A stretch of 43,663 nucleotides of DNA, taken from Vectrevirus T205P5. Positions 13,989-39,203 of this stretch are shown one piece after another. Every line of letters begins with the position of its first letter. The stretch's first letter is position 1. A program made the translations under genes and the position numbers. The notes under the pieces are model-generated. The model saw only the letters and a program-made list of their open reading frames with translations, ran no database searches and was not told the origin of the DNA. Where the stretch lies: the sequence record OZ035792.1. One strand, given 5' to 3'.

Positions 13989-14004
13989 GTCTCACACGTG
14001 AGAC
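13989..14004 (+). repeat. Conserved palindrome GTCTCAC-AC-GTGAGAC, copy 1 of 6
   Basis: Identical 7-bp arms shared with the copies at 14171, 16381, 17526, 22622 and 39188; sits immediately upstream of a phage promoter. Confidence 0.8.
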
Positions 14005-14027
14005 TTATTTACCGGACACTATAGGAT
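14005..14027 (+). promoter_or_regulatory. SP6-type phage RNAP promoter, first after the RNAP gene
   Basis: TTATTTACCGGACACTATAGGAT. Confidence 0.7.
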
Positions 14028-14030
14028 AAC

Positions 14031-14160
14031 CGTCGGAGACGGAAAGAAAGGGAAGATAAAGGATATAAAAGGAAGTAATAGGTATTAAAGGTTATATAGG
14101 TTTACCTAGGAATACCTATTACCTTCTTCCTTCCTCTTATTACTACTTAGAGGAAGGGCA
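14031..14160. other. AT-rich structured spacer between tandem promoters, candidate primary origin of replication
   Basis: Purine-rich arm (GGAAAGAAAGGGAAGATAAAGG...GGAAGTAATAGGTA) and complementary pyrimidine-rich arm (TACCTATTACCTTCTTCCTTCC) flank an AT-rich core; the location after the RNAP gene with flanking phage promoters parallels the T7 primary origin. Confidence 0.4.
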
Positions 14161-14170
14161 GACCTAAGTT

Positions 14171-14186
14171 GTCTCACATGTGAGAC
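14171..14186 (+). repeat. Conserved palindrome GTCTCAC-AT-GTGAGAC, copy 2 of 6
   Basis: Exact arms; followed by a degenerate promoter. Confidence 0.8.
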
Positions 14187-14190
14187 TTCG

Positions 14191-14216
14191 TATTTACCGG
14201 ACAGTATAGATAAGAC
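14191..14216 (+). promoter_or_regulatory. Degenerate SP6-type promoter (CAGTATAGAT)
   Basis: TATTTACCGGACAGTATAGATAAGAC; the upstream half is perfect, the core has C-to-G and spacing changes. Confidence 0.3.
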
Positions 14217-14239
14217 TAACTTACTTTGGAGATTTAACC

Positions 14240-14368
14240 ATGCGTAACTTTGAGAAGATGACCCGTAAAGCTAACCGTTTTGACATGGAAGAAGGGCAGA
14301 CGAAAGGCAAGAAGCTGAATAAACCTGTCCGTGACCGTGCATCTAAACGCGCTGCGTGGGAGTTCTAA
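14240..14368 (+). CDS. gp1.1-like small basic protein (42 aa)
   Basis: MRNFEKMTRKANRF...KGKKLNK...RDR.SKR..WE resembles T7 gp1.1 as recalled; GGAG RBS; under 60 aa so absent from the ORF track. Confidence 0.65.
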   Translation: MRNFEKMTRKANRFDMEEGQTKGKKLNKPVRDRASKRAAWEF

Positions 14369-14371
14369 GTT

Positions 14372-16360
14372 ATGGCTATTATTCAGAATGTACCGTGTCC
14401 TGCCTGTCAAAAGAATGGACATGATATTACTGGCAACCATCTTATGATATTTGAGGATGGCGCTGGTTACTGTAACCGTGGTCACTTCCATGATAATGGG
14501 AAGCCTTATTACCATAAGCCAGAGGGTGGTATCGAGATAACCGAATTGCCTATTACTGGCAATATCAAATATACACCCTCTCAATTCAAAGAAATGGAGA
14601 AGGAAGGGAAGATAAGCGACCCTAAGCTACGCGCCATCGCACTTGGTGGTATGCGTATGAAAGACCGTTGGGAGGTTATGAATGAGCAAGAAAGGGCAGA
14701 CCAAGAAGCAGAGTGGAAACTTGATGTTGAATGGTTCCTCACGCTTAAGCGTAAGAACCTTGTATCCCGTCACATTCGAGGTGACATCGCAGCAATGTAC
14801 GATGTGCGCGTTGGACACGATGAAGAGGGAAGAGTCAACCGTCACTATTATCCACGATATGAAAAGGGTGTGCTTGTTGGAGCAAAATGCCGGACGTTGC
14901 CGAAGGATTTTAAGTTCGGACACCTAGGTAAACTCTTTGGTATGCAAGACCTTTTCGGTATGAACACTTTGTCTCACGTGTTAGACAAGGGGAGACGAAA
15001 GGATTGCTTGCTTATTGTAGGCGGTGAACTTGATGCACTAGCAGCGCAGCAGATGCTCCTTGATTCTGCCAAGGGTACTAAGTGGGAGGGTCAGCCATAC
15101 CATGTATGGTCTGTCAACAAAGGCGAGTCTTGCCTTGAAGAGATAGTGCAGAACCGCGAGCATATCGCCCAATTCAAGAAGATTATATGGGGTTTTGATG
15201 GAGATGAGGTAGGGCAGAAGCAGAATCAGCAAGCGGCTCGCCTGTTTCCTGGCAAATCCTATATCCTTGAATATCCCTCTGGTTGCAAAGATGCTAACAA
15301 GGCATTGATGGCTGGCAAGGCTAAAGAGTTTGTAGATGCATGGTTTAATGCCAAGTCATCTGATGAAGTCTTTGGTAGCCAGATTAAATCTATCGCATCT
15401 CAAAGGGATAAGCTCAAGGCTGCACGTCCAGAGCAAGGACTATCATGGCCTTGGCCTAAGCTGAACAAGGTAACGCTAGGTATTCGTAAGAATCAGCTTA
15501 TCATTGTAGGTGCAGGGTCTGGTGTAGGTAAGACTGAGTTCCTTCGTGAAGTAGTTAAGCACCTCATTGAAGAACACGGTGAATCTGTAGGCATCATTTC
15601 TACAGAAGACCCGATGGTCAAGGTGTCCCGTGCTTTTATCGGCAAGTGGATTGATAAGCGTATTGAGTTACCGCCAACCAACGACCCGAAAGAAGATGGA
15701 TACCGTGAGGTGTTCGACTACACCGAGGAAGAAGCTAACGCCGCCATTGATTATGTAGCTGATACAGGTAAGCTGTTTGTAGCTGACCTAGAGGGTGACT
15801 ATTCGATGGAAAAGGTAGAGCAAACTTGCCTAGAGTTTGAGGCTATGGGCATTTCTAATATCATCATTGATAACTTAACGGGGATTAAATTAGATGAGCG
15901 TGCTTTTGGTGGGAAGGTTGGTGCACTTGATGAATGCGTCAAGCGGATTGGTACTATCAAAGACCGACACCCGGTTACTATATTCCTTGTATCACACCTT
16001 ACACGTCCTCCGGCAAACCGTACCCAACACGAAGAAGGTGGCGAAGTTATCCTTTCTGACTTCCGAGGCTCAGGCGCTATCGGATTCTGGGCATCTTACG
16101 CCTTGGGGATTGAGCGTAATACAAGAGCTGAAACGCTTGACGAAAGGACTACCACGTACATCTCATGTGTCAAAGACCGCGACCAAGGTATCTGGACTGG
16201 AACCAAGGTCATGCTTAAGGGTGACATTCAAACCGGACGTTTAATGGAACCACAAGCCCGTACTAAGTCATTTGACACCGGCGAAGCAAGGCAACAAGAA
16301 GTACCGGATTTACCGGACACTATAGAAGAGACTAACTTCGATGAAGAAAGTGAGTTCTGA
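14372..16360 (+). CDS. DNA primase/helicase (T7 gp4-like)
   Basis: N-terminal Cys4 zinc ribbon (CPACQ...CNRGH), TOPRIM-like VGGELDALA, Walker A GAGSGVGKTEF, acidic C-terminal tail ending EESEF. Confidence 0.95.
   Translation: MAIIQNVPCPACQKNGHDITGNHLMIFEDGAGYCNRGHFHDNGKPYYHKPEGGIEITELPITGNIKYTPSQFKEMEKEGKISDPKLRAIALGGMRMKDRWEVMNEQERADQEAEWKLDVEWFLTLKRKNLVSRHIRGDIAAMYDVRVGHDEEGRVNRHYYPRYEKGVLVGAKCRTLPKDFKFGHLGKLFGMQDLFGMNTLSHVLDKGRRKDCLLIVGGELDALAAQQMLLDSAKGTKWEGQPYHVWSVNKGESCLEEIVQNREHIAQFKKIIWGFDGDEVGQKQNQQAARLFPGKSYILEYPSGCKDANKALMAGKAKEFVDAWFNAKSSDEVFGSQIKSIASQRDKLKAARPEQGLSWPWPKLNKVTLGIRKNQLIIVGAGSGVGKTEFLREVVKHLIEEHGESVGIISTEDPMVKVSRAFIGKWIDKRIELPPTNDPKEDGYREVFDYTEEEANAAIDYVADTGKLFVADLEGDYSMEKVEQTCLEFEAMGISNIIIDNLTGIKLDERAFGGKVGALDECVKRIGTIKDRHPVTIFLVSHLTRPPANRTQHEEGGEVILSDFRGSGAIGFWASYALGIERNTRAETLDERTTTYISCVKDRDQGIWTGTKVMLKGDIQTGRLMEPQARTKSFDTGEARQQEVPDLPDTIEETNFDEESEF
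16307..16330 (+). promoter_or_regulatory. SP6-type phage RNAP promoter embedded in the 3' end of the primase/helicase gene
   Basis: GATTTACCGGACACTATAGAAGAG; encodes PDLPDTIEE. Confidence 0.7.
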
Positions 16361-16380
16361 TTAGTGTATTTATCAGGGCT

Positions 16381-16396
16381 TGTCTCACATGTGAGA
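16381..16396 (+). repeat. Conserved palindrome GTCTCAC-AT-GTGAGAC, copy 3 of 6 (extended stem 16377-16402)
   Basis: Flanks extend pairing to about 11 bp with one G-U wobble; lies after the helicase stop. Confidence 0.8.
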
Positions 16397-16436
16397 CAGG
16401 CTCTTATTAAGTACATTAAATAACTGGAGATTGATT

Positions 16437-17120
16437 ATGTATAACTTAGTGTTGAATGTAGGTGACTTTGTACGCAACATCAAGAAAGATTCAAGTCGCT
16501 ATCTTTGCCGTGGTGTTGTAACCTTTGTAGATGAGAACCTGTATTATGTAGAATATCGCAGTGGTGTTAAGCAATATTACCACAAGAAGACAGCACATAA
16601 ATATCTTGAAAAGATTGTAGAGATAAACAATCAATGTAAGTGCATACATGATGAGGTTTGCGATAAATGTGCTCGCCAGATGCTTAAGAATTTCCTAGCT
16701 CCTCTTTATTATGGTGCTGGTCCTCAAACACTAGCAGAGTACATGGCAGAAAAGAAAACCACACTCAAGAAAGAGCGTCGCAATGTAATCACTGGTAAGA
16801 CTCAAAGTGAGATGATTAAGCAATGTGGCACTGCATTAGGTGTTACACAGTTTAATACTCGTGCATTGGGTAAATCCACAGGACAAGCTATGGTAAAGAT
16901 TGGAGAAGCCATGATGCATCCAAATGTACCTGTACGAATCATGGATGTTGACCATGCAATCACAGAACACGGTACGCAACGACGTGTAATTAATAAGCAT
17001 TTTGCCGACACTATAGAAGGTATTATTCGTAAGCAAGAGTTGAAAGGTCTTCACATCTTGAATGGTGAAGAGTTACTGTACCTACCTATCGTTACTGAAG
17101 AAACATACGTGAATATCTAA
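16437..17120 (+). CDS. Hypothetical protein (228 aa) with Cys-rich segment
   Basis: GGAG RBS before the ATG at 16437; CKCIHDEVCDKC motif; contains an internal promoter. Confidence 0.55.
   Translation: MYNLVLNVGDFVRNIKKDSSRYLCRGVVTFVDENLYYVEYRSGVKQYYHKKTAHKYLEKIVEINNQCKCIHDEVCDKCARQMLKNFLAPLYYGAGPQTLAEYMAEKKTTLKKERRNVITGKTQSEMIKQCGTALGVTQFNTRALGKSTGQAMVKIGEAMMHPNVPVRIMDVDHAITEHGTQRRVINKHFADTIEGIIRKQELKGLHILNGEELLYLPIVTEETYVNI
16998..17020 (+). promoter_or_regulatory. SP6-type phage RNAP promoter embedded in coding sequence
   Basis: CATTTTGCCGACACTATAGAAGG; core GACACTATAGAAG is perfect; encodes FADTIEGI. Confidence 0.55.
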
Positions 17121-17130
17121 GGAGTTAATC

Positions 17131-17349
17131 ATGACTAAGGTATTAATTTATATGCGTGGACCTCATAAATGCTATGCAGTTGTAGCACCAAATGGTGTTA
17201 AGCCCTATAGAACTTCAAAAAGATTGGCATTAGTAGGTGCTAGTAGTAGTGCAAGTTTCCAAATGGAACTTTTTGGTCATTGGACTGAACGGCAATTCCG
17301 TGAGGATTTTAAAGTCATTGGCAGCTTCATGGTGAAACATGCAGAGTAA
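17131..17349 (+). CDS. Hypothetical protein (72 aa)
   Basis: AAGGAG RBS; ORF-track ORF in a coding-dense region. Confidence 0.5.
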   Translation: MTKVLIYMRGPHKCYAVVAPNGVKPYRTSKRLALVGASSSASFQMELFGHWTERQFREDFKVIGSFMVKHAE

Positions 17350-17516
17350 ACATAGTCTTAAAATGTTCGATGGTCATGAAGACCTGCAAGCCAAGATTAC
17401 TAACCAAGCCTTCCTGTTTGCACAGTTAACTATGGCTGAAGCAAAGAAGAATAGCCTGACGCGTGAACAGGTTATCAAGGAAAGTGAAGTGAAACGTAAG
17501 ATTCGCAGTCGATAAG
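17339..17516 (+). CDS. Small hypothetical protein (59 aa)
   Basis: ATG overlaps the previous gene end; terminates just before palindrome copy 4. Confidence 0.3.
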
Positions 17517-17525
17517 TCAAGGGTT

Positions 17526-17541
17526 GTCTCACGTGTGAGAC
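17526..17541 (+). repeat. Conserved palindrome GTCTCAC-GT-GTGAGAC, copy 4 of 6 (extended stem 17521-17545)
   Basis: Exact arms; flanks pair with one G-U wobble. Confidence 0.8.
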
Positions 17542-17567
17542 AGCCTTTCATCATATTGATTGGAGGT

Positions 17568-17675
17568 GCATTATGCCACGTGATTATGATTCTGATTGGG
17601 ACTATTATGACTCAATGAATCCAAAACCCGAACGTTCAGATGATTACTACGAAACAGAGGCAATGTATGAATACT
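17568..17675 (+). CDS. Small acidic ORF (35 aa), hypothetical
   Basis: GGAGGT RBS; overlaps the DNA polymerase start. Confidence 0.3.
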
Positions 17676-20213
17676 ATTGATTGGAAGAAGGAAGCGGAAG
17701 GGCGGATCCTAGTTATGGACGCCGAAGCAAAAGGCTTGCTTGATGCCATACGCTATGGTCATCGTGAAGATGTGCACATCATTTGCTGCATGGATTTACT
17801 CACCACTGAGGAGTTCCTATTCTTCGACCCATATGAGATGCGTGACCCTGAGGCAAGGGAGCGCCTGAAGGAGTGGGAAGGCCATCAAGACGGAACCTTG
17901 GTTGATGGTGTTAACTTCCTGAAGCATTGTGAAGCTATTGTGTCACAGAACTTCCTAGGGTATGACGGACTTCTCTTTGAGAAAGCATTCCCTGATATTT
18001 GGAAAGGCTTTAACTATACCGAGAAGCGCGGTAAGGGCAGACTCCGTGCTGACCTGTGTCCGGTGCGAGTCATGGATACGCTGGTGATGAGTCGCCTGTT
18101 AAACCCCGATAGACGCCTCCCTCCGCAAGCATATGCCAAAGGTATGGGTAACGTCGCCCCTCACTCAATTGAGGCGCACGGCATCCGTATAGGCCGCTAT
18201 AAACCGGAGAACGAGGACTGGTCTAAACTAACTGACCACATGGTTCACCGTGTACGTGAGGACGTGGCGATTGGTCGTGACTTGTTCCTCTGGCTCTTTA
18301 ACGGGGAATGGATGGAGCACAAACGCCGTGGCGTGAATAAACGCACTGGCCTAGGTATTGAGACAGCCTTCCACATGGAGTCCATTGTGGCGCTGGAGAT
18401 GAGCCGTCAGGCAGAGCGTGGATTCCGTCTGGATATTGACAAAGCTTTGGCCCGATGCGAAGAATTGGACGCTAAGATTGATGAGACAGTCGCAGCGTTC
18501 CGCCCTCACATGCCTATGCGTATCAAGTCTAAACCTTTTAAACCGGAAGAAAAGAATGAAGTATGCCAACGCGCAAATGAGTATGGAGCTAGCAACAATA
18601 TACCTACTGTCCTTGACCCCTCACACTTTCTTCATGCCGAGAGACGAGGAGATCGCAAGACAGTATGGAGTGTCACTACTAAGTCTGGTGATTGGTCGGC
18701 TAGTGTCAAGAAAGACTTTCCTCACCTTAGAGGAAACCGTAATGACACGCCAAGCATCAAGTGGATTGGCGCTTACTCGCCTGTTACTTTCGAAGAGATT
18801 CCCTTGGGTAACAGGGATACAGTTAAGCAAGTGCTCTATGATTATGGATGGAAAGGTGTTGAATTTAACGATACCGAGCAAGCGCATCTCGATGAGTATG
18901 GCGTATTACCAAAACCTTGGAGTGGAAAGATAAATGAAAAGTCTCTTACTTTATGGCAAGAGAGAGCCGCACGTGAAGGTAAAACAGTACCCGATTGGTG
19001 CTTGGGTATCGCTGCATGGTACATACTCGTATCCCGTCGTGGTCAGATACTTAACCGTGGTGACGTTGAAGCCTTCAACGAGAAGGGAACGTGGCCCTCG
19101 CAGGCTGGTGTACGAAAGTGTCGCGGCCTTGTACCTGTAGCATTCAACAAGGAGCTAGGAATCAATGCGCAGCAATACTACGAAAGGTACGGATGCTGGC
19201 CTACGTCAGACAAGGATGACGGGGAGTGGCGTGTTCCAGCTGTTGCTATTAGCATTGGCACTTCTACGTTCCGTATGCGTCATCGTAACGTGGTTAATAT
19301 TCCTGCCCGTGGCTTGTATCCTTTACGTGATTTATTCATAGCAGGTAAAGGCAAGCTAATCCTTGGTTGTGACGGTGCAGGTCTTGAACTGCGCGTCCTG
19401 TCTCACTTCATGAATGACCCTGAGTACCAAGAGATTGTATTGCATGGTGACATCCATACACATAACCAGATGAAGGCTGGTCTTCCTAAGCGTGACATGG
19501 CGAAGACGTTTATATACGCTTTCCTCTATGGCTCTGGTATAGCTAACCTTGCAGCAGTCTGCGGTGTTACTGAGGAAGAAATGAAGGAAGTTGTGGCAAG
19601 ATTCGAGATTGAACTACCGTCTCTTGCACGTCTTCGTGAGAATGTTATCGCACAAGGTAACAAGTTTGGCTACCTGCAAGCACCTGATGGGCATTGGGGT
19701 CGCATCCGCATGTCTGGTGGTGAACTTAAAGAGCACACGATGCTTAACGTATTACTCCAGATGACTGGCTCTTTGTGTATGAAATATGCATTAGTCAAGG
19801 CATTTGCAGTAATGCGCAAGGAAGGTGTAGCTTTGGATGCTATGGGAAATCCTTGTGGTGTGGCTAACGTGCATGATGAAATCCAGATGGAAGTTCCTGA
19901 AGAGGAGGTCTTGTATCTTAACTACGACCTACCTTTCACCTTAGATGGGTTCGAAACAGAGAAGGCTGCCGTGCAAGCAGTGTTCGATGCAGAGGAGAAA
20001 CGTGTTCATGTGGATTCTGAAGGACGTATGTGGTCCGCTGCAAACCTCGTTAGTGTTGATGCTGATGCTGGTGTATTGCATTGCCAGCGCCGTTATCACC
20101 GTGCAGGTCATATCATTGCCGACGCCATGACTTGGGCAGGGCAGTATCTGAAGATGCGTTGCCCGATGGCAGGCGAATATAAGATTGGCGCAAGTTGGAA
20201 GGAAACACACTGA
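17667..20213 (+). CDS. DNA polymerase, family A, with N-terminal 3'-5' exonuclease domain
   Basis: Motif A DGAGLELRVLSHF, motif B RDMAKTFIYAFLYGSG, motif C VHDE; AGAGG RBS before the internal ATG at 17667. Confidence 0.9.
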   Translation: MNTIDWKKEAEGRILVMDAEAKGLLDAIRYGHREDVHIICCMDLLTTEEFLFFDPYEMRDPEARERLKEWEGHQDGTLVDGVNFLKHCEAIVSQNFLGYDGLLFEKAFPDIWKGFNYTEKRGKGRLRADLCPVRVMDTLVMSRLLNPDRRLPPQAYAKGMGNVAPHSIEAHGIRIGRYKPENEDWSKLTDHMVHRVREDVAIGRDLFLWLFNGEWMEHKRRGVNKRTGLGIETAFHMESIVALEMSRQAERGFRLDIDKALARCEELDAKIDETVAAFRPHMPMRIKSKPFKPEEKNEVCQRANEYGASNNIPTVLDPSHFLHAERRGDRKTVWSVTTKSGDWSASVKKDFPHLRGNRNDTPSIKWIGAYSPVTFEEIPLGNRDTVKQVLYDYGWKGVEFNDTEQAHLDEYGVLPKPWSGKINEKSLTLWQERAAREGKTVPDWCLGIAAWYILVSRRGQILNRGDVEAFNEKGTWPSQAGVRKCRGLVPVAFNKELGINAQQYYERYGCWPTSDKDDGEWRVPAVAISIGTSTFRMRHRNVVNIPARGLYPLRDLFIAGKGKLILGCDGAGLELRVLSHFMNDPEYQEIVLHGDIHTHNQMKAGLPKRDMAKTFIYAFLYGSGIANLAAVCGVTEEEMKEVVARFEIELPSLARLRENVIAQGNKFGYLQAPDGHWGRIRMSGGELKEHTMLNVLLQMTGSLCMKYALVKAFAVMRKEGVALDAMGNPCGVANVHDEIQMEVPEEEVLYLNYDLPFTLDGFETEKAAVQAVFDAEEKRVHVDSEGRMWSAANLVSVDADAGVLHCQRRYHRAGHIIADAMTWAGQYLKMRCPMAGEYKIGASWKETH

Positions 20214-20329
20214 TGGATAGGCTTGACATTGTTTACCTATTCTTCACTTTCTTTCTTACACTCCTTATGCTTGCTTGTTATGGGAGTATGAGACTAGATA
20301 TACCTGATGAAGAAGAGGGTTACGACTAA
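20213..20329 (+). CDS. Small membrane protein (38 aa), hypothetical
   Basis: ATG overlaps the polymerase stop; hydrophobic VYLFFTFFLTLLMLACYG. Confidence 0.3.
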   Translation: MDRLDIVYLFFTFFLTLLMLACYGSMRLDIPDEEEGYD

Positions 20330-20427
20330 TGCAAACTGCTTTTATTATTCTTGGTATCATATTATTTATGGTAGTATTCTGGGCTTTCTCTGGCATTGAC
20401 CCAGATTGTGATGGTAACTACGACTGA
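20329..20427 (+). CDS. Small membrane protein (32 aa), hypothetical
   Basis: Start overlaps the upstream stop; hydrophobic FIILGIILFMVVFWAF. Confidence 0.25.
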   Translation: MQTAFIILGIILFMVVFWAFSGIDPDCDGNYD

Positions 20428-20486
20428 GTTATACTCAAGGTCACTTACGAGTGGCCTTTATGAATAACTTAACTGGAGGAAATATA

Positions 20487-21044
20487 ATGGATGAACTGAA
20501 CACTAAGATGCTCAAGAAAGTTTATAATCTTGTATATAGTATCACGGGCCTACAATTCTACCCTGTAGGCGGTGCGGTTCGTGACACCCTGTACGGATTA
20601 ACACCTAAAGACTATGATATGGTGTTGCCTGTAGGGTCTATGGCAGATTCTCAGGCGCACGAAATCATGGAAAATATCTCTGAAGAGATGGCAATTATGG
20701 GATTTAGTACCAAACTCTACCAATCATACGGTATCAATTTAGGTTATGAAATCAACCCTACCTCTTTTCAGGCTATGTTCCTTAGCTGCATGAAAGTGCA
20801 GATGCGTAATTGCCAACTTGATTTGCTTCTTTCTAAGGCTGAAACCATCCAAGATCATGTACGTAAGCACGATTGCAATATGAATATGGTGTGGTTCGAT
20901 GGTAAAGATATCAAGTGGGAGCACGGCGGTGTTACTCCTTTCGTTCCTGTGTTAGAGTTCAACCCTGACGGATGTGATCGTCGCATTGCTTACATGGACA
21001 AGAAGCGCCATGAACTTATCCGTCACAAATTAATGCATCTTTGA
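20487..21044 (+). CDS. Nucleotidyltransferase, CCA-adding/poly(A) polymerase head-domain family (pol beta superfamily)
   Basis: YPVGGAVRDTLYGLTPKDYDMVL matches the catalytic head motif of class II tRNA nucleotidyltransferases (E. coli CCA: [23 protein letters not shown]); only about 185 aa, so head domain only; GGAGGA RBS before the internal ATG. Confidence 0.6.
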   Translation: MDELNTKMLKKVYNLVYSITGLQFYPVGGAVRDTLYGLTPKDYDMVLPVGSMADSQAHEIMENISEEMAIMGFSTKLYQSYGINLGYEINPTSFQAMFLSCMKVQMRNCQLDLLLSKAETIQDHVRKHDCNMNMVWFDGKDIKWEHGGVTPFVPVLEFNPDGCDRRIAYMDKKRHELIRHKLMHL

Positions 21045-21068
21045 TTTACCGGACACTATAGAAGGAAG
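21043..21068 (+). promoter_or_regulatory. SP6-type phage RNAP promoter
   Basis: GATTTACCGGACACTATAGAAGGAAG; followed by an AT-rich TAGGT-repeat leader. Confidence 0.8.
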
Positions 21069-21130
21069 TCCTAGGTAATCTAGGTTTATAAGGTAGTATA
21101 GGTAATTAAGTAAATATAGGAGATATAAAC

Positions 21131-21508: not shown

Positions 21509-21530
21509 TTACTGGACACTATAGAACAAT
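21507..21530 (+). promoter_or_regulatory. SP6-type phage RNAP promoter (TATAGAAC variant)
   Basis: AATTACTGGACACTATAGAACAAT. Confidence 0.7.
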
Positions 21531-21585: not shown

Positions 21586-22392
21586 ATGGCACGTGGTGAT
21601 TTTGATTTTGGTGCTCAGGTTACTAAAGCTGAAGGTAAGGTTTTTAAGAACCCTGAAGTTGGTGATCATGAAGCAGTAATCTCTGGCATCATTCATGTGG
21701 GTTCCTTCCAAGATATCTTTAAGAAAGGTAATACCACTGAAGTTAAGAAGCCAGCAAACTTTGTTCTTGTTAAGATTGTACTGATGGGTGACGATGACAA
21801 GAACGAAGATGATTCTCGCATGGAACAGTGGATGGCTGTGCCTCTTAAGTCTGGTGACAAGGCAACCTTGACTAAGTTCCTGAATGCAGTTGACCCTAAA
21901 GAGCTGCTTGGTGGTTTCGATGACTTCATCGGTGAATGCCTGACTGCAACTATGGTTGGCTCTGGAGACAAGAATGATGATGGTACTTTCAAGTATGTTA
22001 ACTGGAAAGGCTTTGGCGGTATGCCTGATAAGTTGAAGAAGCTTGTACTGGCTCAGGTAGAAGAGGAAGGTCTGTCTATGACAGGTCATATCACCTTCGA
22101 CAAGCTGACCAAAGAAATCCTTGATGACATCCCAGCTAACTTGGTGCGTCAATACTTCCTTAATGAAACACCTCGTGGTAAGAACCTGTCTGTTGCTGGT
22201 TCTCACGTAGAAGCAATCATTAAAGCTGCTCGTGAAGAAGACCCAGAATGGAAGAAGGCTAAGAAGAAAGATGACGAGGATGCTACTCCAGCTAATCGTA
22301 AATCTCTGGATACTGGTGAGTCTGTTCCACAGGAAGTACCTGAAGCAGAAGACACTCCTGCACCGGAGATGGATGAGGACGCGGAATATTAA
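21586..22392 (+). CDS. Acidic-tailed protein (268 aa), possible single-stranded DNA-binding protein
   Basis: High-expression codon usage; C-terminal acidic tail ending EMDEDAEY, like the polymerase-docking tails of T7 gp2.5 and gp4; no direct sequence match recognised. Confidence 0.4.
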   Translation: MARGDFDFGAQVTKAEGKVFKNPEVGDHEAVISGIIHVGSFQDIFKKGNTTEVKKPANFVLVKIVLMGDDDKNEDDSRMEQWMAVPLKSGDKATLTKFLNAVDPKELLGGFDDFIGECLTATMVGSGDKNDDGTFKYVNWKGFGGMPDKLKKLVLAQVEEEGLSMTGHITFDKLTKEILDDIPANLVRQYFLNETPRGKNLSVAGSHVEAIIKAAREEDPEWKKAKKKDDEDATPANRKSLDTGESVPQEVPEAEDTPAPEMDEDAEY

Positions 22393-22620: not shown

Positions 22621-22621
22621 A

Positions 22622-22637
22622 GTCTCACGTGTGAGAC
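22622..22637 (+). repeat. Conserved palindrome GTCTCAC-GT-GTGAGAC, copy 5 of 6
   Basis: Exact arms; directly after a stop codon and 15 nt upstream of a strong promoter. Confidence 0.8.
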
Positions 22638-22652
22638 AAATCGGTGTCCGGT

Positions 22653-22676
22653 ATTTACTGGACACTATAGAAGAGA
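22653..22676 (+). promoter_or_regulatory. SP6-type phage RNAP promoter (consensus)
   Basis: TATTTACTGGACACTATAGAAGAG. Confidence 0.85.
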
Positions 22677-22725: not shown

Positions 22726-23097
22726 ATGTTCAAGATTGAAACTATCGTAAACCGTGTTGTTAAAGGTGCTGCTCTGGTATCCGTTGAGTCTTTCATTATC
22801 GTCGATGAAGCTGATCAACTGGTAGCTGGTACTAAGGCTTACGATACCCGTGAAGAGGCTCAGGCTAAGATTGACAGCATGGGTAACTTCGCTGCTGGTC
22901 TGGAGTTCGCTCGTGCTTGCTTCCCTGAGCAGGCTGACAAAGCTCAGATTGGTAAGGCTAATATCGTAGCTGAATATCTGGATTGGGTTGCTGCTGGTAA
23001 ACCAGTGAAAGAAGTTAAGGCTGCTGAAGAAGCTGAAGCTCCAGCAGAAGAAGTAGCTGCACCGGAAACTCCGGTAAGCGAAGAGGAAGAATTTTGA
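22726..23097 (+). CDS. Highly expressed small acidic-tail protein (123 aa), unknown function
   Basis: AAGGAG RBS; strong codon bias; own consensus promoter upstream and terminator downstream; C-terminus ends VSEEEEF. Confidence 0.65.
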   Translation: MFKIETIVNRVVKGAALVSVESFIIVDEADQLVAGTKAYDTREEAQAKIDSMGNFAAGLEFARACFPEQADKAQIGKANIVAEYLDWVAAGKPVKEVKAAEEAEAPAEEVAAPETPVSEEEEF

Positions 23098-32306: not shown

Positions 32307-32313
32307 CACCTAT

Positions 32314-32350
32314 GCCCTATCTACCTTGCGTAGGTAGGGTTCTTTTTGTT
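32314..32350 (+). terminator. Tphi-like terminator after the major capsid gene
   Basis: CCCTATCTA-ccttgcg-TAGGTAGGG hairpin with one G-U wobble, followed by TTCTTTTTGTT. Confidence 0.65.
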
Positions 32351-32360
32351 AGGAGGATTC

Positions 32361-33098
32361 ATGCCTGTAATTAGACAAACCAGTAAATTAGGACATATGA
32401 TGGAAGATGTGGCCTTCCAGATTATTGATAGTAAGCTGGAAGCGGTAAACTTGTGTATGCGAGCTATTGGTCGTGAGGGTGTGGATTCCCTCGACTCAGG
32501 GGACTTGGACGCAGAAGATGCAAGCAAAATGATCGACATCGTATCCCAGCGGTTCCAGTACAACAAAGGAGGTGGCTGGTGGTTCAATCGTGAACCAAAC
32601 TGGCAACTTGCACCAGACACTAACGGTGAAGTTAATTTACCTAACAACTGCCTAGCAGTATTGCAGTGTTATGCTTTAGGTGAAAAGAAAGTACCTATGA
32701 CTATGCGAGCAGGTAAGCTCTACTCTACTTGGAGTCACACCTTTGATATGCGTAAGCATGTTAATGCTAATGGTATGATTCGTCTTACCTTACTCACCTT
32801 ACTACCCTACGAGCATCTACCTACAAGTGTAATGCAGGCTATTGCCTATCAAGCTGCTGTAGAGTTTATTGTGTCTAAGGATGCAGATCAGACTAAGCTA
32901 GCCACTGCGCAGCAGATAGCCACTCAGCTTCTTATGGATGTACAATCTGAGCAAATGTCACAGAAGCGATTAAACATGCTGGTACATAACCCCACTCAGC
33001 GTCAGTTTGGTATCATGGCTGGTGGCTCTCAGAATGTACCTGCTTACTCTCATTCACCTTATGAGAGTTGGGCGCTCCGTCCGTGGGAGGATCGTTAA
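32361..33098 (+). CDS. Tail tubular protein A (gp11-like)
   Basis: AGGAGGA RBS before the ATG at 32361; position between capsid and tail tube B. Confidence 0.7.
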   Translation: MPVIRQTSKLGHMMEDVAFQIIDSKLEAVNLCMRAIGREGVDSLDSGDLDAEDASKMIDIVSQRFQYNKGGGWWFNREPNWQLAPDTNGEVNLPNNCLAVLQCYALGEKKVPMTMRAGKLYSTWSHTFDMRKHVNANGMIRLTLLTLLPYEHLPTSVMQAIAYQAAVEFIVSKDADQTKLATAQQIATQLLMDVQSEQMSQKRLNMLVHNPTQRQFGIMAGGSQNVPAYSHSPYESWALRPWEDR

Positions 33099-35500
33099 TG
33101 GAAGTACAAGGTTCATTAGGTAGACAAATCCAAGGGATTAGCCAGCAGCCGCCAGCGGTACGCTTGGATGGTCAGTGCACAGCTATGGTTAATATGATAC
33201 CTGATGTAGTGAATGGTACTCAATCACGCATGGGTACAACTCATATTGCAAAGATACTTGATGCGGGGACTGATGACATGGCTACTCATCATTATCGCAG
33301 AGGTGATGGTGATGAAGAGTATTTCTTCACGTTGAAGAAAGGACAAGTTCCTGAGATATTTGATAAGTATGGGCGCAAATGTAATGTGACTTCACAAGAT
33401 GCACCTATGACCTACCTCTCTGAGGTTGTTAATCCAAGGGAAGATGTGCAATTCATGACGATAGCTGATGTTACTTTCATGCTTAATCGTAGGAAAGTAG
33501 TTAAAGCTAGTAGCAGGAAGTCACCTAAAGTTGGAAACAAAGCCATTGTGTTTTGTGCGTATGGTCAATATGGTACATCTTATTCCATTGTAATTAATGG
33601 GGCCAACGCTGCTAGTTTTAAAACACCGGATGGTGGAAGTGCAGACCATGTTGAACAAATTCGAACTGAACGTATCACTTCTGAATTGTACTCTAAGTTG
33701 CAGCAATGGAGCGGTGTGAGTGACTATGAAATACAAAGAGACGGTACTAGTATATTTATCGAGAGACGGGATGGTGCTAGCTTTACAATAACAACCACCG
33801 ATGGTGCAAAAGGTAAGGACTTAGTGGCTATCAAGAATAAAGTTAGCTCTACTGACCTACTCCCTTCTCGTGCGCCTGCTGGTTATAAAGTACAAGTGTG
33901 GCCTACTGGCAGCAAACCTGAGTCTCGTTACTGGCTGCAAGCTGAGCCTAAAGAGGGAAACCTTGTGTCTTGGAAAGAAACAATAGCTGCTGATGTATTA
34001 CTTGGGTTTGATAAAGGCACAATGCCTTACATTATTGAACGTACAGATATCATCAACGGCATAGCTCAATTCAAGATAAGACAAGGTGATTGGGAAGATC
34101 GTAAAGTAGGGGATGACTTGACTAACCCTATGCCCTCTTTTATTGATGAGGAAGTACCCCAGACAATAGGTGGAATGTTCATGGTGCAGAACCGCCTATG
34201 CTTTACAGCAGGTGAAGCGGTTATTGCTTCTCGTACATCATACTTCTTCGATTTCTTTCGTTATACGGTTATCTCTGCATTGGCAACTGACCCCTTTGAT
34301 ATTTTCTCAGATGCTAGTGAAGTTTACCAGCTAAAACATGCAGTGACCTTAGATGGCGCTACCGTGTTGTTCTCTGATAAGTCACAATTCATACTGCCAG
34401 GCGATAAGCCTTTAGAGAAGTCAAATGCACTGCTTAAGCCTGTTACAACATTTGAAGTGAACAATAAAGTGAAGCCAGTAGTAACTGGTGAATCGGTAAT
34501 GTTTGCCACTAATGATGGTTCTTACTCTGGTGTACGAGAGTTCTATACAGACTCTTATAGTGACACTAAGAAGGCACAAGCAATCACAAGTCATGTGAAT
34601 AAACTCATCGAAGGTAACATTACCAACATGGCAGCAAGCACCAATGTCAACAGGTTACTTGTCACTACCGATAAGTATCGTAACATAATCTACTGCTACG
34701 ATTGGTTATGGCAAGGAACAGACCGTGTACAATCAGCATGGCATGTATGGAAGTGGCCTATAGGTACAAAGGTGCGAGGTATGTTTTATTCTGGTGAATT
34801 ACTTTACCTGCTCCTTGAGCGAGGAGATGGCGTGTATCTGGAGAAGATGGACATGGGTGATGCACTAACCTACGGTTTGAATGACCGCATCAGAATGGAT
34901 AGGCAAGCAGAGTTAGTCTTCAAGCATTTCAAAGCAGAAGATGAATGGGTATCTGAGCCGCTCCCTTGGGTTCCTACTAACCCAGAACTTTTAGATTGCA
35001 TCTTAATCGAGGGTTGGGATTCATATATTGGCGGCTCTTTCTTATTCAAGTACAACCCTAGTGACAATACTTTGTCTACAACCTTTGATATGTATGATGA
35101 CAGCCATGTAAAGGCGAAGGTTATTGTTGGTCAGATTTACCCTCAAGAGTTTGAACCTACGCCTGTGGTTATCAGAGACAATCAAGACCGTGTATCCTAC
35201 ATTGATGTACCAGTTGTAGGATTGGTTCACCTTAATCTTGACATGTACCCCGATTTCTCCGTAGAAGTTAAGAATGTGAAGAGTGGTAAAGTACGTAGAG
35301 TATTAGCGTCAAACCGTATAGGTGGTGCTCTCAATAATACAGTAGGCTATGTTGAACCGAGAGAAGGTGTCTTCAGATTTCCACTGAGAGCTAAGAGCAC
35401 GGATGTTGTTTATCGTATTATTGTAGAGTCACCTCACACATTCCAGCTTCGTGATATTGAGTGGGAGGGGAGCTACAATCCAACCAAAAGGAGGGTCTAA
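33098..35500 (+). CDS. Tail tubular protein B (gp12-like)
   Basis: About 800 aa; N-terminal GISQQP motif as in T7 gp12; GGGAGGA RBS; start overlaps the upstream stop. Confidence 0.85.
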   Translation: MEVQGSLGRQIQGISQQPPAVRLDGQCTAMVNMIPDVVNGTQSRMGTTHIAKILDAGTDDMATHHYRRGDGDEEYFFTLKKGQVPEIFDKYGRKCNVTSQDAPMTYLSEVVNPREDVQFMTIADVTFMLNRRKVVKASSRKSPKVGNKAIVFCAYGQYGTSYSIVINGANAASFKTPDGGSADHVEQIRTERITSELYSKLQQWSGVSDYEIQRDGTSIFIERRDGASFTITTTDGAKGKDLVAIKNKVSSTDLLPSRAPAGYKVQVWPTGSKPESRYWLQAEPKEGNLVSWKETIAADVLLGFDKGTMPYIIERTDIINGIAQFKIRQGDWEDRKVGDDLTNPMPSFIDEEVPQTIGGMFMVQNRLCFTAGEAVIASRTSYFFDFFRYTVISALATDPFDIFSDASEVYQLKHAVTLDGATVLFSDKSQFILPGDKPLEKSNALLKPVTTFEVNNKVKPVVTGESVMFATNDGSYSGVREFYTDSYSDTKKAQAITSHVNKLIEGNITNMAASTNVNRLLVTTDKYRNIIYCYDWLWQGTDRVQSAWHVWKWPIGTKVRGMFYSGELLYLLLERGDGVYLEKMDMGDALTYGLNDRIRMDRQAELVFKHFKAEDEWVSEPLPWVPTNPELLDCILIEGWDSYIGGSFLFKYNPSDNTLSTTFDMYDDSHVKAKVIVGQIYPQEFEPTPVVIRDNQDRVSYIDVPVVGLVHLNLDMYPDFSVEVKNVKSGKVRRVLASNRIGGALNNTVGYVEPREGVFRFPLRAKSTDVVYRIIVESPHTFQLRDIEWEGSYNPTKRRV

Positions 35501-36222
35501 TGGCTATAGGTTCAGCCGTTATGGCTGGTATGTCTTCTATTGGTAGCATGTTTGCAGGCAGTGGTGCAGCAGCCGCTGCTGGAGGTGCTGCCGCAGGTGG
35601 CGGAGGTTTGCTAGGTTCACTAGGTGGATTCCTAAGTGGCTCTACTGCTGGTTTCTCTAATGCTGGCCTTCTTGGTGCTGGCCTTCAAGGGTTAGGCTTG
35701 ATTGGTGATCTATTTGGTGGAAGTGATGAAGCCAAGGCGATGAAGAAAGCACAAGAAGAGCAATGGCGGCAGCAGCTTATTGCTACACAAGAGGCGTACA
35801 AGACAGTGGCAGACGCAGAACGTTCTGCTGCTAAACAATATCATGCAGATGCAATCAGCAATCAGGCTTCACTGCTACAGCAGCGAGCACAGGTTGCATT
35901 ACTTGCTGGGGCTACTGGTACTGGTGGTAACTCTGTGTCTTCTATGCTGAATGACTTAGCAGCAGAAGGCGGAAGGAACCAGAGTACAATTATCGATAAC
36001 TATGAGAATCAGAAGATTAACTTCACAAACCAGCTTAAGTCCATCCAACGTGGTGGTCAGGTGCAGATGCGTGAGTTTAAGAAACCTTCTGCCGTGAGCA
36101 CCTTGGTGCAAGGTATACCGAGTCTGGCATCTGCCTATGTAACAGGTAGTAAGTCCGGCATGGCTTTAGGTAAAGCTTTAACTGATTCTCGTACATATTC
36201 ATCTGGAACAAGAGGTATTTAA
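35500..36222 (+). CDS. Internal virion protein (gp14-like), Gly/Ala-rich
   Basis: AAGGAGGG RBS; Gly/Ala-rich N-terminal half; between tail tube B and the large internal virion proteins. Confidence 0.6.
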   Translation: MAIGSAVMAGMSSIGSMFAGSGAAAAAGGAAAGGGGLLGSLGGFLSGSTAGFSNAGLLGAGLQGLGLIGDLFGGSDEAKAMKKAQEEQWRQQLIATQEAYKTVADAERSAAKQYHADAISNQASLLQQRAQVALLAGATGTGGNSVSSMLNDLAAEGGRNQSTIIDNYENQKINFTNQLKSIQRGGQVQMREFKKPSAVSTLVQGIPSLASAYVTGSKSGMALGKALTDSRTYSSGTRGI

Positions 36223-39170
36223 TGGCAATTGAGCGACAAGCAGTACAAGGTCTGCCACAAGTGCAGGCCACTTCTCCTAATGTCATGACCTTTGCACCTC
36301 AGCAAGTTGGAGGTGTGGAGGCTGGCGTAGCTTCTACCTCCGGTAGTCGATTTATCGAAGACCTTATTCGAGCAGCCAGTAGTGTAGCTGATGTAACCAC
36401 TGGTATCCTTAATCAAAAGATTGAGGAAGATAAGGTTGTTCAAATGGAACGGGCATATAACGGATTAATGCCCTCTGAGGATGCAACTCGTGGTGGCGCT
36501 CGTGCTAACATGCTTGTCAAAGCTCAACTGCTAGCTAATGATGAAGCAGCACGAATGAAAGACATGGCTACTCGTTTCCAAGGAACGGATGACGAGTGGA
36601 CACAACTTATGGTTGACTCTCGTAATGAGATGCAGAATAAGCTGTTCCAGCAATACCCTGAGTTGCAAGGTGACAAAGATACCATGCGTATGGTCACTAA
36701 TGTCTTCCAAGAACAGCAGCCTCAGATTTGGGCTACACGAACCCAGCATAAACTTGACCGTGAACAAGCAGACCGTGAGGATACCTTTGACGGGCGAGTG
36801 GCTTCTACTTGGGATTCTAATATTGACCCTGAAGCCTCTGGCTATGCTTTACAGGAACGAATCCGCGAAGGTCTTACTCAAGGATTACTACCTGAACAGA
36901 TGCACAAGAAGTTAGTCCAGCGAGCAATTTCACTTGCACAAGGCGGTGATGTTAGCATGGCTGAAGCCTTGAAGTATGTGAAGGACGATAAGGGTGTTTC
37001 TGTTTATGCTAAGAATCCACAGCTTATCACAGCCATCACTAGTGGTAATGCAGTTTGGGCTAGGAATAATGTAGCTGATGTAACTCGTATGTCTTTCGAA
37101 GTTAAAGAATCATACCTTGCAGGTGATTTAACTGATGAAGAATTGTTGGAACGAGCACAGCACATTAATAATCTGACAGGTAATTCTGTCTTCTCTAACC
37201 CAGAACTAGAGGCACTGATGCGCCAACGAGCTAAGCAGAATGCAGAGCTAGGTGCAATGCAGGATATGCGCCGTGAGCTTTACTCCGACCGCCTGACTGG
37301 CTTCCAAGGTAAGACTGATAAAGAGAAGAAGGCTTACATTGATGTTATCAAACAAGATAGCCAACTTTATGCAGACCAGCAAATCAAACAACGTGGCTTG
37401 GACCCTTACAGTCAAGAGGCTGAAGCTATTCGTGGTGCAGTGGAAGTGCAGCGCCTGCAATTCATGAACTCCAAAGGCTTAGTGGATGATACCTTTGAGT
37501 CTCGTATCAAAGCCATGGAATCTATGCTATCGCCTGAGCACTTTGCCAAGGGCGAACCACAGGAGTTGATGACTATTCGCCAGTTGTGGGAACAGTTGCC
37601 AGAAGAGAGCCGAGGTGTCTTTGGTGACACGGTGAATGGCTACATGGATAACTACAACACTGCACTACAAATGGGAGAGACACCTTTGCAGGCTGCAAGG
37701 TTTGCGCGTGAAGCACAGCAGAAATTCTCTCGTACTGAGAAGGAAACCAAGAAGTTCAACTCAGCTATTGGAGATGCACTGGATGAGGTATCTGGTGCTG
37801 GCTGGTTTGATGGTAAAACCGAAGTGTCAGACTTAGGTAAAGCTATTGCGGAAGAAGAGTTACGAGCTAAGGCCAATATGTTGTGGTCTAGTGGTATGCG
37901 TAACATGGATTCTATCAAGAAGGCTTTAATTACTTGGGGCAATAAACGCTACACTCAAACAGAGGATGCAAAGACTTCCGGTGGCTATTTCATTAAAGGT
38001 GATTACACTTCTGCATCTGATATGCTTATGTCAGTTGGGAAAGGCGTAAACCCTACCGATGTACCTCTGGCGCTTGGTAGGTATGTAGAAACACAGATGC
38101 CAGAATTGAAGAAGGAGCTTCAAGAGTGGGAAACTAAAGATGATATATACATTGATTACAATGAACAGAAAGGTACTTTCGTGATTCGTGCTGGTGCAGC
38201 AGGTCGCCCTCTTTCTGGAGTAATCCCTGTAACCTCTTTAGATACCACTTCACTACTAGATTCTGCCTATCAGAAGAAAGTAGAGGAACGAGATAAAGGC
38301 GAGTATGTTCACCCTTATCGTACAGATATTGGTGCACAAGAGCCTATGCCAGCTAAACCAACTGCCAAAGATATTGGTAAATTTGGACTAGCTAACTTCC
38401 TCATGTCTTCTGCTTTTGCTTCTGGTGAGAATCTGCCTTCTAACTTCGAGATTAACTATCGAGGTAATATGCAACAATTCTATGACAAGCTAGCTATGGA
38501 TGAGAATAAAGATAAAGTTGGCTTTAATAAGGCAACTGGAACCTTTACTCCATATAAAGATGCTCACGGTGAGTCTATCGGTTACGGTCATTTCTTAACG
38601 GAAGAAGAGAAGCGAAACGGGTATATTAAGATTGGTGATGAACTAGTTCCCTATCGAGGGTCTATGTCTCAGCTTACAGAGAGCAAGGCTCGCGCTCTTA
38701 TGGAGCAAGATGCCAAGAAGCATGTGCCTCCTACTCGTGACTGGAAGATTCCGTTTGACCAGATGCATCCTGCACAGCAACGTGGCTTGATGGATTTAAC
38801 CTACAATTTAGGTAAAGGTGGAATCCAGAACTCACCGCGTGCTCTTGCTGCATTCAAAGCTGGTAAGCTTACGGAAGGCTTTATCGAAATGCTGGGCACT
38901 GCATCAAGTGAAGGTAAGCGTATCCCTGGTCTACTGAAGCGACGCGCTGAGGCATACAATATGGCATCTGCTGGTGGTGTGCCTAAGATTACCGAAGTGG
39001 AGACTCGTGAAGATGGCTCCATGTGGGTTAGGTTTGGTGGACCTATGCCAGCAGGTTCTGTCTCGGCATGGATTCATAAACGTATTGGTGCGGATGGTTG
39101 GTATCAGGTTTATGAGGCTGCACCTACCAAGTTAGCTAAAGGTTCTAAGGTAGGTAAATTTAAGTTGTAG
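36222..39170 (+). CDS. Internal virion protein with C-terminal lysozyme-like (GH24-type) peptidoglycan hydrolase domain
   Basis: 982 aa; the C-terminal region contains YKDAHGESIGYGH, resembling the T4 lysozyme motif YKDTEGYYTIGIGH. Confidence 0.7.
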   Translation: MAIERQAVQGLPQVQATSPNVMTFAPQQVGGVEAGVASTSGSRFIEDLIRAASSVADVTTGILNQKIEEDKVVQMERAYNGLMPSEDATRGGARANMLVKAQLLANDEAARMKDMATRFQGTDDEWTQLMVDSRNEMQNKLFQQYPELQGDKDTMRMVTNVFQEQQPQIWATRTQHKLDREQADREDTFDGRVASTWDSNIDPEASGYALQERIREGLTQGLLPEQMHKKLVQRAISLAQGGDVSMAEALKYVKDDKGVSVYAKNPQLITAITSGNAVWARNNVADVTRMSFEVKESYLAGDLTDEELLERAQHINNLTGNSVFSNPELEALMRQRAKQNAELGAMQDMRRELYSDRLTGFQGKTDKEKKAYIDVIKQDSQLYADQQIKQRGLDPYSQEAEAIRGAVEVQRLQFMNSKGLVDDTFESRIKAMESMLSPEHFAKGEPQELMTIRQLWEQLPEESRGVFGDTVNGYMDNYNTALQMGETPLQAARFAREAQQKFSRTEKETKKFNSAIGDALDEVSGAGWFDGKTEVSDLGKAIAEEELRAKANMLWSSGMRNMDSIKKALITWGNKRYTQTEDAKTSGGYFIKGDYTSASDMLMSVGKGVNPTDVPLALGRYVETQMPELKKELQEWETKDDIYIDYNEQKGTFVIRAGAAGRPLSGVIPVTSLDTTSLLDSAYQKKVEERDKGEYVHPYRTDIGAQEPMPAKPTAKDIGKFGLANFLMSSAFASGENLPSNFEINYRGNMQQFYDKLAMDENKDKVGFNKATGTFTPYKDAHGESIGYGHFLTEEEKRNGYIKIGDELVPYRGSMSQLTESKARALMEQDAKKHVPPTRDWKIPFDQMHPAQQRGLMDLTYNLGKGGIQNSPRALAAFKAGKLTEGFIEMLGTASSEGKRIPGLLKRRAEAYNMASAGGVPKITEVETREDGSMWVRFGGPMPAGSVSAWIHKRIGADGWYQVYEAAPTKLAKGSKVGKFKL

Positions 39171-39187
39171 TATCTAACTCAAGGCTT

Positions 39188-39203
39188 GTCTCACATGTGA
39201 GAC
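39188..39203 (+). repeat. Conserved palindrome GTCTCAC-AT-GTGAGAC, copy 6 of 6 (extended stem 39182-39208)
   Basis: Exact arms; between the two large internal virion protein genes. Confidence 0.8.

Follow-up and report, generated by a model that had tools for sequence, protein, structure and literature searches.

T7-like phages are textbook systems in which expression is controlled by promoters, one or two terminators, RNase III sites, and polymerase inhibitor proteins; they are not known to use sequence-specific DNA-binding regulators. In the plasmid regulator KorB, DNA-binding domains are tethered by a linker to a C-terminal domain, and the parS sites of ParB proteins are built from the half-sites GTTTCAC/GTGAAAC. 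Here, we describe a 16-bp palindrome that occurs six times in the genome of Vectrevirus T205P5 (sequence record OZ035792.1; the whole stretch of 43,663 nt is referred to as the window). Its arms differ between phage lineages in concert with a putative recognition helix of the early phage protein gp6, and the 16-mer is probably a double-stranded DNA (dsDNA) operator that would be bound by gp6. Three of the copies are at the same time carried at the apex of predicted RNase III-type hairpins.

Palindrome copies in the genome

The window is a complete K1E/K1-5-like Vectrevirus genome in circularly permuted form (92-97% identity to K1E/K1-5-like genomes, with position 1 of K1-5 at approximately 8030), and all of its genes are carried on the + strand. 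A first-pass annotation, made from the letters alone, had reported six near-identical palindromes. Six exact matches to GTCTCACNNGTGAGAC were indeed found, compared with none in 100 dinucleotide-preserving shuffles; five lie where they had been placed, but the third starts at 16382 and not at 16381. The 7-bp arms GTCTCAC/GTGAGAC are invariant as claimed, and the variable centre reads AC, AT, AT, GT, GT, and AT in coordinate order. Two additional copies carry one mismatch each, one at the left end (8586) and one inside the primase/helicase open reading frame (ORF; 14971). The copies and their main neighbours are as follows.

8586..8601: left-end degenerate copy, GTCTAAC-AT-GTGAGAC; the TTGACA of the early host-type promoter follows 33 nt downstream
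10330..11223, + strand: gp6, early gene directly upstream of the RNA polymerase (RNAP) gene; candidate palindrome-binding protein
13989..14004: copy 1, GTCTCAC-AC-GTGAGAC; stand-alone, after the early terminator-like hairpin
14007..14027, + strand: phage promoter directly downstream of copy 1
14171..14186: copy 2, centre AT; stand-alone
14192..14212, + strand: phage promoter directly downstream of copy 2
14971..14986: in-gene copy, GTCTCAC-GT-GTTAGAC; primase/helicase gene, encodes S-H-V-L-D
16382..16397: copy 3, centre AT; apex of the RNase III-type hairpin 16361-16423
17526..17541: copy 4, centre GT; apex of the RNase III-type hairpin 17505-17567
22622..22637: copy 5, centre GT; stand-alone, 1 nt past the gp17 stop
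22653..22673, + strand: phage promoter downstream of copy 5
39188..39203: copy 6, centre AT; apex of the RNase III-type hairpin 39167-39229

The proximity of three copies to promoters was confirmed: the distance is 2 nt from 13989 to the promoter at 14007, 5 nt from 14171 to that at 14192, and 15 nt from 22622 to that at 22653, the copy being upstream in each case. All six had been described as lying just after stop codons, which is true of 22622, 17526, 39188, and 16382 (1, 10, 17, and 21 nt after a stop), but 13989 is 74 nt past the RNAP stop, beyond the terminator-like hairpin, and 14171 follows no ORF. Copy 2 is located at the right edge of an AT/AG-rich region between two promoters, upstream of the T7 gene 1.1 homologue. 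The position of copy 5, which separates the gp17 homologue from the gp18 homologue's promoter, is also occupied in K1-5, SP6, a Proteus phage, phi-A318, and an Edwardsiella phage, and the left-end copy is present in nearly every relative examined.

Rfam gave no family match at the gathering threshold anywhere in the window, and the GenBank records of K1-5, SP6, and K1E contain annotation of coding sequences only, without a palindrome feature. The literature searched yielded nothing relevant on the 16-mers or on RNase III sites, palindromes, or hairpins of SP6-like phages; an earlier mention is possible in the SP6/K1-5 genome papers (Dobbins 2004; Scholl 2004).

Arm sequences in related phages

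Far from being absent from related phages, the core occurs throughout the SP6 supergroup, and the alignment to SP6-like genomes that the first-pass annotation had proposed shows that the arm sequence is conserved and not just the pairing, with arms that are lineage-specific. The GTCTCAC arms (type A) are also found in Erwinia phiEa100, Vibrio phi-A318 (nine copies with a 3-nt centre), Pseudomonas phage Achelous, and Shewanella phage phiY2, as well as in many IMG/VR contigs with a protein identity to the window of only 36-50%. SP6, Proteus, and Klebsiella phages carry the type-B arms GTCCAAC/GTTGGAC, and further arms elsewhere are GTTTCAC, GTCTACA, GTCTAGT/GTATAGT, GTTCACC, and GTTCGAG. Eight arm variants were found, and each genome uses one arm type for nearly all of its copies. 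T7 and loci of 27-32% RNAP identity contain no palindrome copies.

Some copies are placed inside genes, for example after the RNAP WGWDK motif and in the primase gene. They were made by substitutions with no length change, alter the encoded amino acids, and come and go between lineages, and they take the arm type of their own genome even where pairing is impossible. In the type-A in-gene copy, a GTGAGAC right arm would introduce a TGA stop in frame, and this arm therefore stays GTTAGAC; the left arm is nevertheless of type A, which breaks the pairing with GTTAGAC. In the RNAP gene, an intact palindrome at homologous codons is found in Erwinia and SP6-like phages (L138, L145, L146), phi-A318, phiY2, and Vc1-like phages, where it encodes V-S-N/H-V-L-D, the same peptide in the same frame as the in-gene copy of the primase. 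The window itself has ACCGCTAACGTGCTGGAT at 12700-12717 of its RNAP gene, a decayed remnant of this palindrome.

These in-gene copies bear on the idea that the palindromes are recombination linkers or selfish elements. In this view, the copies are either conserved boundary sequences through which modules are exchanged or a small mobile palindrome, with gene conversion maintaining their uniformity. Copies do lie at gene boundaries, the extra genes of K1E (gp9.5) adjoin a copy, and the K1-5 orthologue of copy 4 has a type-B core GTCCAACGTGTTGGAC between identical flanks, which resembles a clean core swap. On the other hand, in-gene copies arose from point substitutions and not by insertion, dyad symmetry is needless for recombination or mobility, no duplicated copies flank insertions, 16 bp is very short for gene conversion, and the type-A core is conserved across subfamilies. 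We regard this explanation as very improbable.

The first-pass annotation had argued for an RNA-level role from the flank extensions, in which T faces G and a wobble is possible in the + strand RNA only. The TT…AG extension with a T.G wobble on the + strand is real and present at 16382, 17526, and 39188, but it is weak RNA evidence for the core, since TT/AG belongs to an RNase III stem and the non-Watson-Crick pairs of the core across relatives comprise 14 C.A next to 24 T.G. A broader form of the argument is that all copies are + strand hairpins for processing, stabilization of 3' or 5' ends, or insulation of ribosome binding sites, read by RNase III or by a hairpin-specific RNA-binding protein or RNase. 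This would fit with a centre length of 2 or 3 nt, with wobbles that are exclusively T.G in the middle/late region, and with the many copies in relatives that directly adjoin a Shine-Dalgarno sequence or a terminator. Selection for structure alone, however, would not produce identical arms, concerted switches, and in-gene arms that break pairing, and C.A pairs are common. Furthermore, the left-end copy lies upstream of all early promoters (in phiY2 within the terminal repeat), and promoter-adjacent copies are always upstream, so that RNAs started there do not contain them. An element acting as RNA only is thus unlikely; the concerted arms, the pairing breaks within genes, and the C.A pairs together point to a sequence-specific, co-evolving reader rather than to RNA pairing alone.

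An intrinsic terminator is not indicated either: in the window and its relatives, the core (-5.7 kcal/mol) is followed by no consistent U run, and the true terminators beside copies are separate hairpins. Three additional analyses were set aside. The depletion of isolated half-sites was uninformative, since other arm types are equally depleted; an origin-dependent flip of the wobble polarity was only partly consistent with the data; and RNA pairing between separate copies was dismissed because neighbouring centres are not selected for complementarity.

The early protein gp6 as candidate reader

To identify a reader, protein alignments were screened for columns with a residue that is fixed across every type-A genome and shared by no type-B genome. 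RNAP, primase/helicase, terminase, ligase, and capsid contained no such column, and gp6 contained two. This protein is organized as a putative N-terminal DUF3102/ParB-KorB-like helix-turn-helix (HTH) domain, an acidic, PQ-rich linker, and a C-terminal domain; the N-domain reads …FGIKKAQCYKLMSVARVF… and has its putative recognition helix at residues 64-77 (KAQCYKLMSVARVF). Among 62 gp6 homologues from the loci examined, 29 helix variants were compared with seven arm types, and 0 were discordant. The helices and arms correspond as follows.

Helix (A/S)QxYK, 12 variants from at least six lineages: arms GTCTCAC (GTCTCAY in Shewanella phage phiY2)
Helix QC(Y/F)(N/H), eight variants: arms GTCCAAC
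Helix AQASK: arms GTTTCAC
Helix AYVYR: arms GTCTACA
Helix AWAYR: arms GTCTAGT/GTATAGT
Helix TFVYR: arms GTTCACC
Helix SSVSEWC: arms GTTCGAG

For RNAP, helicase, DNA polymerase, and gp6, the window is nested among type-B relatives, and the window and SP6 are mutually closest for all four proteins. Because of this nesting, the helix residue (K versus N/H) and the arm (TC versus CA) must have switched together at least two times. A lysine facing the G of the C5:G pair and an asparagine or histidine facing A5 would fit the usual pairing rules of amino acids and bases. The alternative that the first-pass annotation had offered, a sequence-specific protein site, is therefore the better one for the core, as the arms shift in concert and track the recognition-helix residue of gp6, and we infer that gp6 binds the palindromes. 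This reading is also favoured by the likeness of the arms to parS half-sites. The predicted dsDNA-binding fold of this co-varying protein also speaks against the RNA-only explanation. gp6 and the palindromes co-occur, both being absent from T7 and the loci of 27-32% RNAP identity. The window contains ten phage promoters of the type ATTTAC(C/T)GGACACTATAG, none of which lies between the left end and the RNAP gene, and gp6 is thus expected to be made early by the host RNAP.

The Pfam family DUF3102 matched 11 of 18 gp6 N-domains (best E 1.2e-6), and it was the only match, with no ParB-family Pfam entry and no N-terminal ParB/Srx (CTPase) domain detected in the gp6 homologues. gp6 should accordingly not be filed as a member of the ParB family, to which it would be similar in predicted fold and mode of action only.

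Several observations weigh against a gp6 operator. The N-domain of the window's own gp6 remains below a DUF3102 match, its structure model is of moderate confidence (mean predicted local distance difference test score (pLDDT) 68, from a six-sequence alignment), and a Foldseek search with this model returned nothing significant, the best hit being a ParB-parS complex at E 0.56. A type-B core is tolerated once in the type-A genome of K1-5, and sites of 16 and 17 bp are mixed within single genomes (Proteus phage, L160, L194), which is unusual for rigid dimers. In addition, downstream of the first post-RNAP copy all wobbles are T.G (at least 13 versus 0 C.A, many of them from one lineage), a pattern that also fits selection for a + strand hairpin, and an additional RNA-level constraint is plausible there.

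Other candidate readers were examined and rejected. The family of gp17 (72 aa, directly upstream of copy 5) is absent from Shewanella phage phiY2 and from locus L194, which both bear palindromes. For gp18 (123 aa), the AlphaFold2 model was unusable (pLDDT 50), and its acidic …SEEEEF tail suggests a replisome partner. Searches of the large protein index returned almost no homologues of gp6 and gp17, which limited the structure predictions. By inspection, the host transcription-factor sites of the LexA, CRP, MetJ, and matS kind differ in half-site or spacing, and a host reader is unlikely in general because E. coli and Salmonella phages use different arms. Phyletic profiling with the Edwardsiella phage as a negative proved invalid, since a diverged palindrome family is present there. 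Edwardsiella phage WAG25P1 (L006), L161, and L177 carry two families, GT(A/C)TAGTAYACTA(T/G)AC and GTACTAG-N4-CTAGTAC; the latter often adjoins the former in front of promoters and may represent either a further type of operator or a hairpin associated with promoters. The L006 sites are:

5592, 11659, 11959, 14909, and 20578, reverse strand: L006 repeat sites

RNase III-type hairpins

RNase III sites, one of the RNA-level roles originally considered, are well supported for the three copies with extended flanks but not for the promoter-proximal ones. In RNAfold predictions, 16382, 17526, and 39188 fold with an upper stem of 13 bp and a lower stem of 9-12 bp on either side of an internal loop, while 13989, 14171, and 22622 form a 6-bp core hairpin only (approximately -5.7 kcal/mol). 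T7 RNA folded at its RNase III cleavage coordinates, which reportedly go back to Dunn and Studier in 1983, reproduced the classic (A)CUCAAGG[stem-loop]CCUUUAU|GAU architecture, which corroborates the coordinates. The extended copies have flanks of this T7 consensus, as illustrated at 39188 by AACUCAAGGCUU[core]AGGUCUUUAUGAU. A covariance model was built from six T7 RNase III sites only and searched against both strands of the whole window with filters off. The five best matches, all on the + strand and intergenic, were the following.

20425-20475, + strand: rank 1, 43 bits, E 4e-7, core absent
39167-39229, + strand: rank 2, 28.7 bits, E 6e-4, core present
5930-5982, + strand: rank 3, 22.1 bits, E 0.018, core absent
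17505-17567, + strand: rank 4, 19.7 bits, E 0.06, core present
16361-16423, + strand: rank 5, 19.5 bits, E 0.067, core present

The matches at 17505-17567 and 16361-16423 are borderline individually, and the stand-alone copies 13989, 14171, and 22622 gave no match in this search. Orthologues of the 39188 site with a palindrome tip reach 45 bits in SP6, Proteus, and Klebsiella phages, and the Erwinia phage orthologue reaches 30.6 bits without a palindrome. Across 21 RNase III-type sites from eight phages, 95.8% of the cells are paired versus 36-48% when the partner column is slid, and compensatory double changes occur at 19 of the 19 pairs, figures that are favoured by the fitting of the alignment to the model.

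Judged by their sequence and predicted fold, 16382, 17526, and 39188 are T7-type RNase III processing sites. Alignment to the T7 sites predicts cleavage after U16407 (CUCUUAU|UAAG), after U17551 (CCUUUCAU|CAU), and after U39213 (CUUUAU|GAU). Because T7-type sites without a core exist at 20425, at 5930, and in the Erwinia orthologue, the palindrome is an optional and not a defining apex of these hairpins. An element acting as RNA only would be supported by the three copies embedded in strongly covarying hairpins that are homologous to T7 RNase III sites, but the core-less sites are, according to the model, of the same kind, and the stand-alone copies combine a weak hairpin with no model match. 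Weaker core-less candidates (E 0.2-0.4) were observed at 9531-9583, 10271-10324, and 11217-11273, in the early spacers before the ocr, gp6, and RNAP genes, mirroring R0.3/R0.5/R1 of T7.

Proposed function

In the gp6 operator reading, the half-site for one HTH domain would be the 7-bp arm plus the adjoining purine, and a long flexible acidic linker would tie this domain to the C-terminal domain, which is the presumed dimerization domain. Half-sites would thereby be read almost independently, so that 2- or 3-bp centres and changes in single half-sites can be tolerated. As a duplex, the candidate type-A operator core is GTCTCACATGTGAGAC, and the contrasting core is GTCCAACATGTTGGAC. Operators would thus precede the early promoters, follow the early terminator, adjoin three phage promoters on their upstream side, and occur in the primase gene and at the tips of three RNase III hairpins. 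Since the palindrome is structurally harmless at a hairpin tip, one short spacer can hold both signals, and where a spacer was already filled by an RNase III hairpin, the operator would have come to lie at its tip.

The placement of the sites suggests, tentatively, that gp6 might act like KorB on its 12 OB operators, either regulating globally or forming a roadblock, so that transcription units are insulated and early/middle expression is restrained once gp6 has accumulated; this role is conceivable rather than likely. A function in DNA organization or one related to the origin is also possible. We consider it an even question whether the SP6-supergroup phages as a whole (Molineuxvirinae, Colwellvirinae, and relatives) share a previously unrecognized system, in which an early ParB/KorB-like gp6 (DUF3102) would bind 6-11 lineage-specific parS-like palindromes, switch specificity together with them, and control transcription-unit insulation, early shut-off, or DNA organization. 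T7 itself serves such a role in a very different way.

The region after the RNAP gene and other observations

The region 13915-14372 after the RNAP gene contains a terminator-like hairpin (13922-13952) and two palindrome-promoter pairs that flank an AT/AG-rich inverted repeat, followed by a 42-aa ORF (14240-14368) that matches the Pfam family Phage_1_1 (T7 gene 1.1). The whole region probably corresponds to the primary origin of replication in T7 and its surroundings. It bears on an explanation in which the palindromes are single-stranded DNA (ssDNA) hairpins that act in replication, as a priming site, a helicase or PriA-type signal, or an origin element, with an orientation set by the lagging-strand template. 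Two copies flank the promoter pair and the AT-rich region homologous to the T7 phi1.1A/B primary origin, beside the gene 1.1 homologue, and the 14 C.A cases are confined to the terminal/early region and the first post-RNAP copy, with T.G only further to the right. For one T7-like vibriophage, the RNase III-type palindromes have been proposed to act as ssDNA hairpins sensed by Lamassu/PriA (PMC11707656). Against this explanation, approximately ten T.G cases occur to the left of the RNAP gene, the physical right end of a relative's genome (Klebsiella phage, 8335) carries at least one C.A copy, and a stem of 6-7 bp is marginal as an ssDNA hairpin signal; the co-variation with an HTH recognition helix would also be left without explanation. 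Moreover, the triplet GCA, which SP6 primase is said to recognize (reportedly Tseng et al. in 2000), is absent from the palindrome. Taken together, ssDNA hairpins are an improbable explanation.

A degenerate relative of the palindrome had been reported at 7812-7835. The flank AAGGGCAGAC(C/T)TA(A/G)GTT is common to both, but the site is not a palindrome, and the supposed relationship arose because the word AAGGGCAGAC occurs there. This 10-mer is a separate over-represented word (seven copies versus 0.07 expected), with sites at 4922, 7813, 14154, 14292, 14692, and 18033 (+) and at 40152 (-), several of which are within genes. It contains GCA and may be a preferred priming site.

Between the palindrome at 22622 and the promoter at 22653, an inverted promoter core (GGTGTCCGGTA-TT-TACTGGACAC) is present at 22643-22666, with which the upstream half of the promoter can pair to form an 11-bp hairpin with G.T wobbles on the + strand. 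SP6, the Proteus phage, and phi-A318 show this arrangement too, each with sequences that match its own promoter.

At the left end, a dense array of CTTAGT(G/A) short repeats was observed at 8300-8650, between the presumed terminal repeat and the early promoter, together with a GC-rich CCCTCGCC repeat at approximately 8030-8050; left-end repeats of such a kind are typical of T7-group genomes. The ORF at 20451-21044 encodes a head domain of the poly(A) polymerase/CCA-adding nucleotidyltransferase type, which tblastn detected in the Klebsiella phage, with a weak match in Achelous and none in K1-5 and SP6; the Edwardsiella phage has an ORF annotated as nucleotidyltransferase. Both gp18 (22726-23097) and gp16 (21586-22392) have acidic tails whose last residue is aromatic (…SEEEEF and …EDAEY, respectively), which resemble the polymerase-binding tails of T7 gp2.5 and gp4. 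The two proteins are probably replisome components, and gp16 is probably a single-stranded DNA-binding protein.

Significance

If the proposed system exists, it would add a new layer of control, consisting of a co-evolving early HTH protein and dispersed operators, to the whole SP6/K1E/K1-5 branch, which includes therapy phages and supplies the SP6 and K1E RNA polymerases for biotechnology. It would also give a function to DUF3102 and to the conserved gp6. Three of the palindromes mark predicted sites of mRNA processing, every copy could trigger defences that sense palindromes, such as Lamassu, and the set provides practical landmarks for genome engineering.

Comparison with known systems

One close parallel is KorB with its 12 OB operators on the IncP plasmid RK2 (ParB family; 1R71, 8QA8). 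There too, approximately ten short palindromic operators are dispersed over a replicon of 40-60 kb, some directly upstream of promoters and others far from promoters or within genes, and in KorB, as in the predicted gp6, an HTH domain for DNA binding is joined through a flexible linker to a C-terminal domain. In contrast to KorB, gp6 has no detectable N-terminal CTPase domain and no significant sequence similarity, the half-sites are 2-3 bp apart, and the replicon is a lytic phage of the T7 supergroup.

In the ParB-parS systems (Spo0J 1VZ0, Caulobacter 6T1F), the half-sites are identical to the arms of the Vibrio Vc1-like locus L160 and differ by 1 nt from those of the window. However, the half-sites of parS abut, whereas the palindromes here have a 2-3 bp spacer, neither a ParA partner nor a CTPase domain is present, and the sites do not cluster near an origin alone; a virulent phage, moreover, has no need for partition.

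The T7 RNase III sites (R0.3, R0.5, R1.1, R4.7, R18.5) resemble the copies 16382, 17526, and 39188 in their bipartite hairpin, their CUCAAGG…CCUUUAU|GAU flanks, their conserved U.G pairs, and their intergenic position. The three copies differ in that an invariant palindrome replaces the top of the upper stem (13 bp versus 9-10), and 13989, 14171, and 22622 are without any RNase III feature.

The stoperators of cluster A mycobacteriophages (L5 gp71) are asymmetric 13-mers that are oriented with transcription and recognized by a temperate phage's immunity repressor, which is monomeric, whereas the sites described here are symmetric and belong to a virulent phage. Common to both are the many near-identical short sites at gene boundaries across the genome and, with gp6 as the putative reader, a phage-encoded HTH protein that co-evolves with its sites between lineages.

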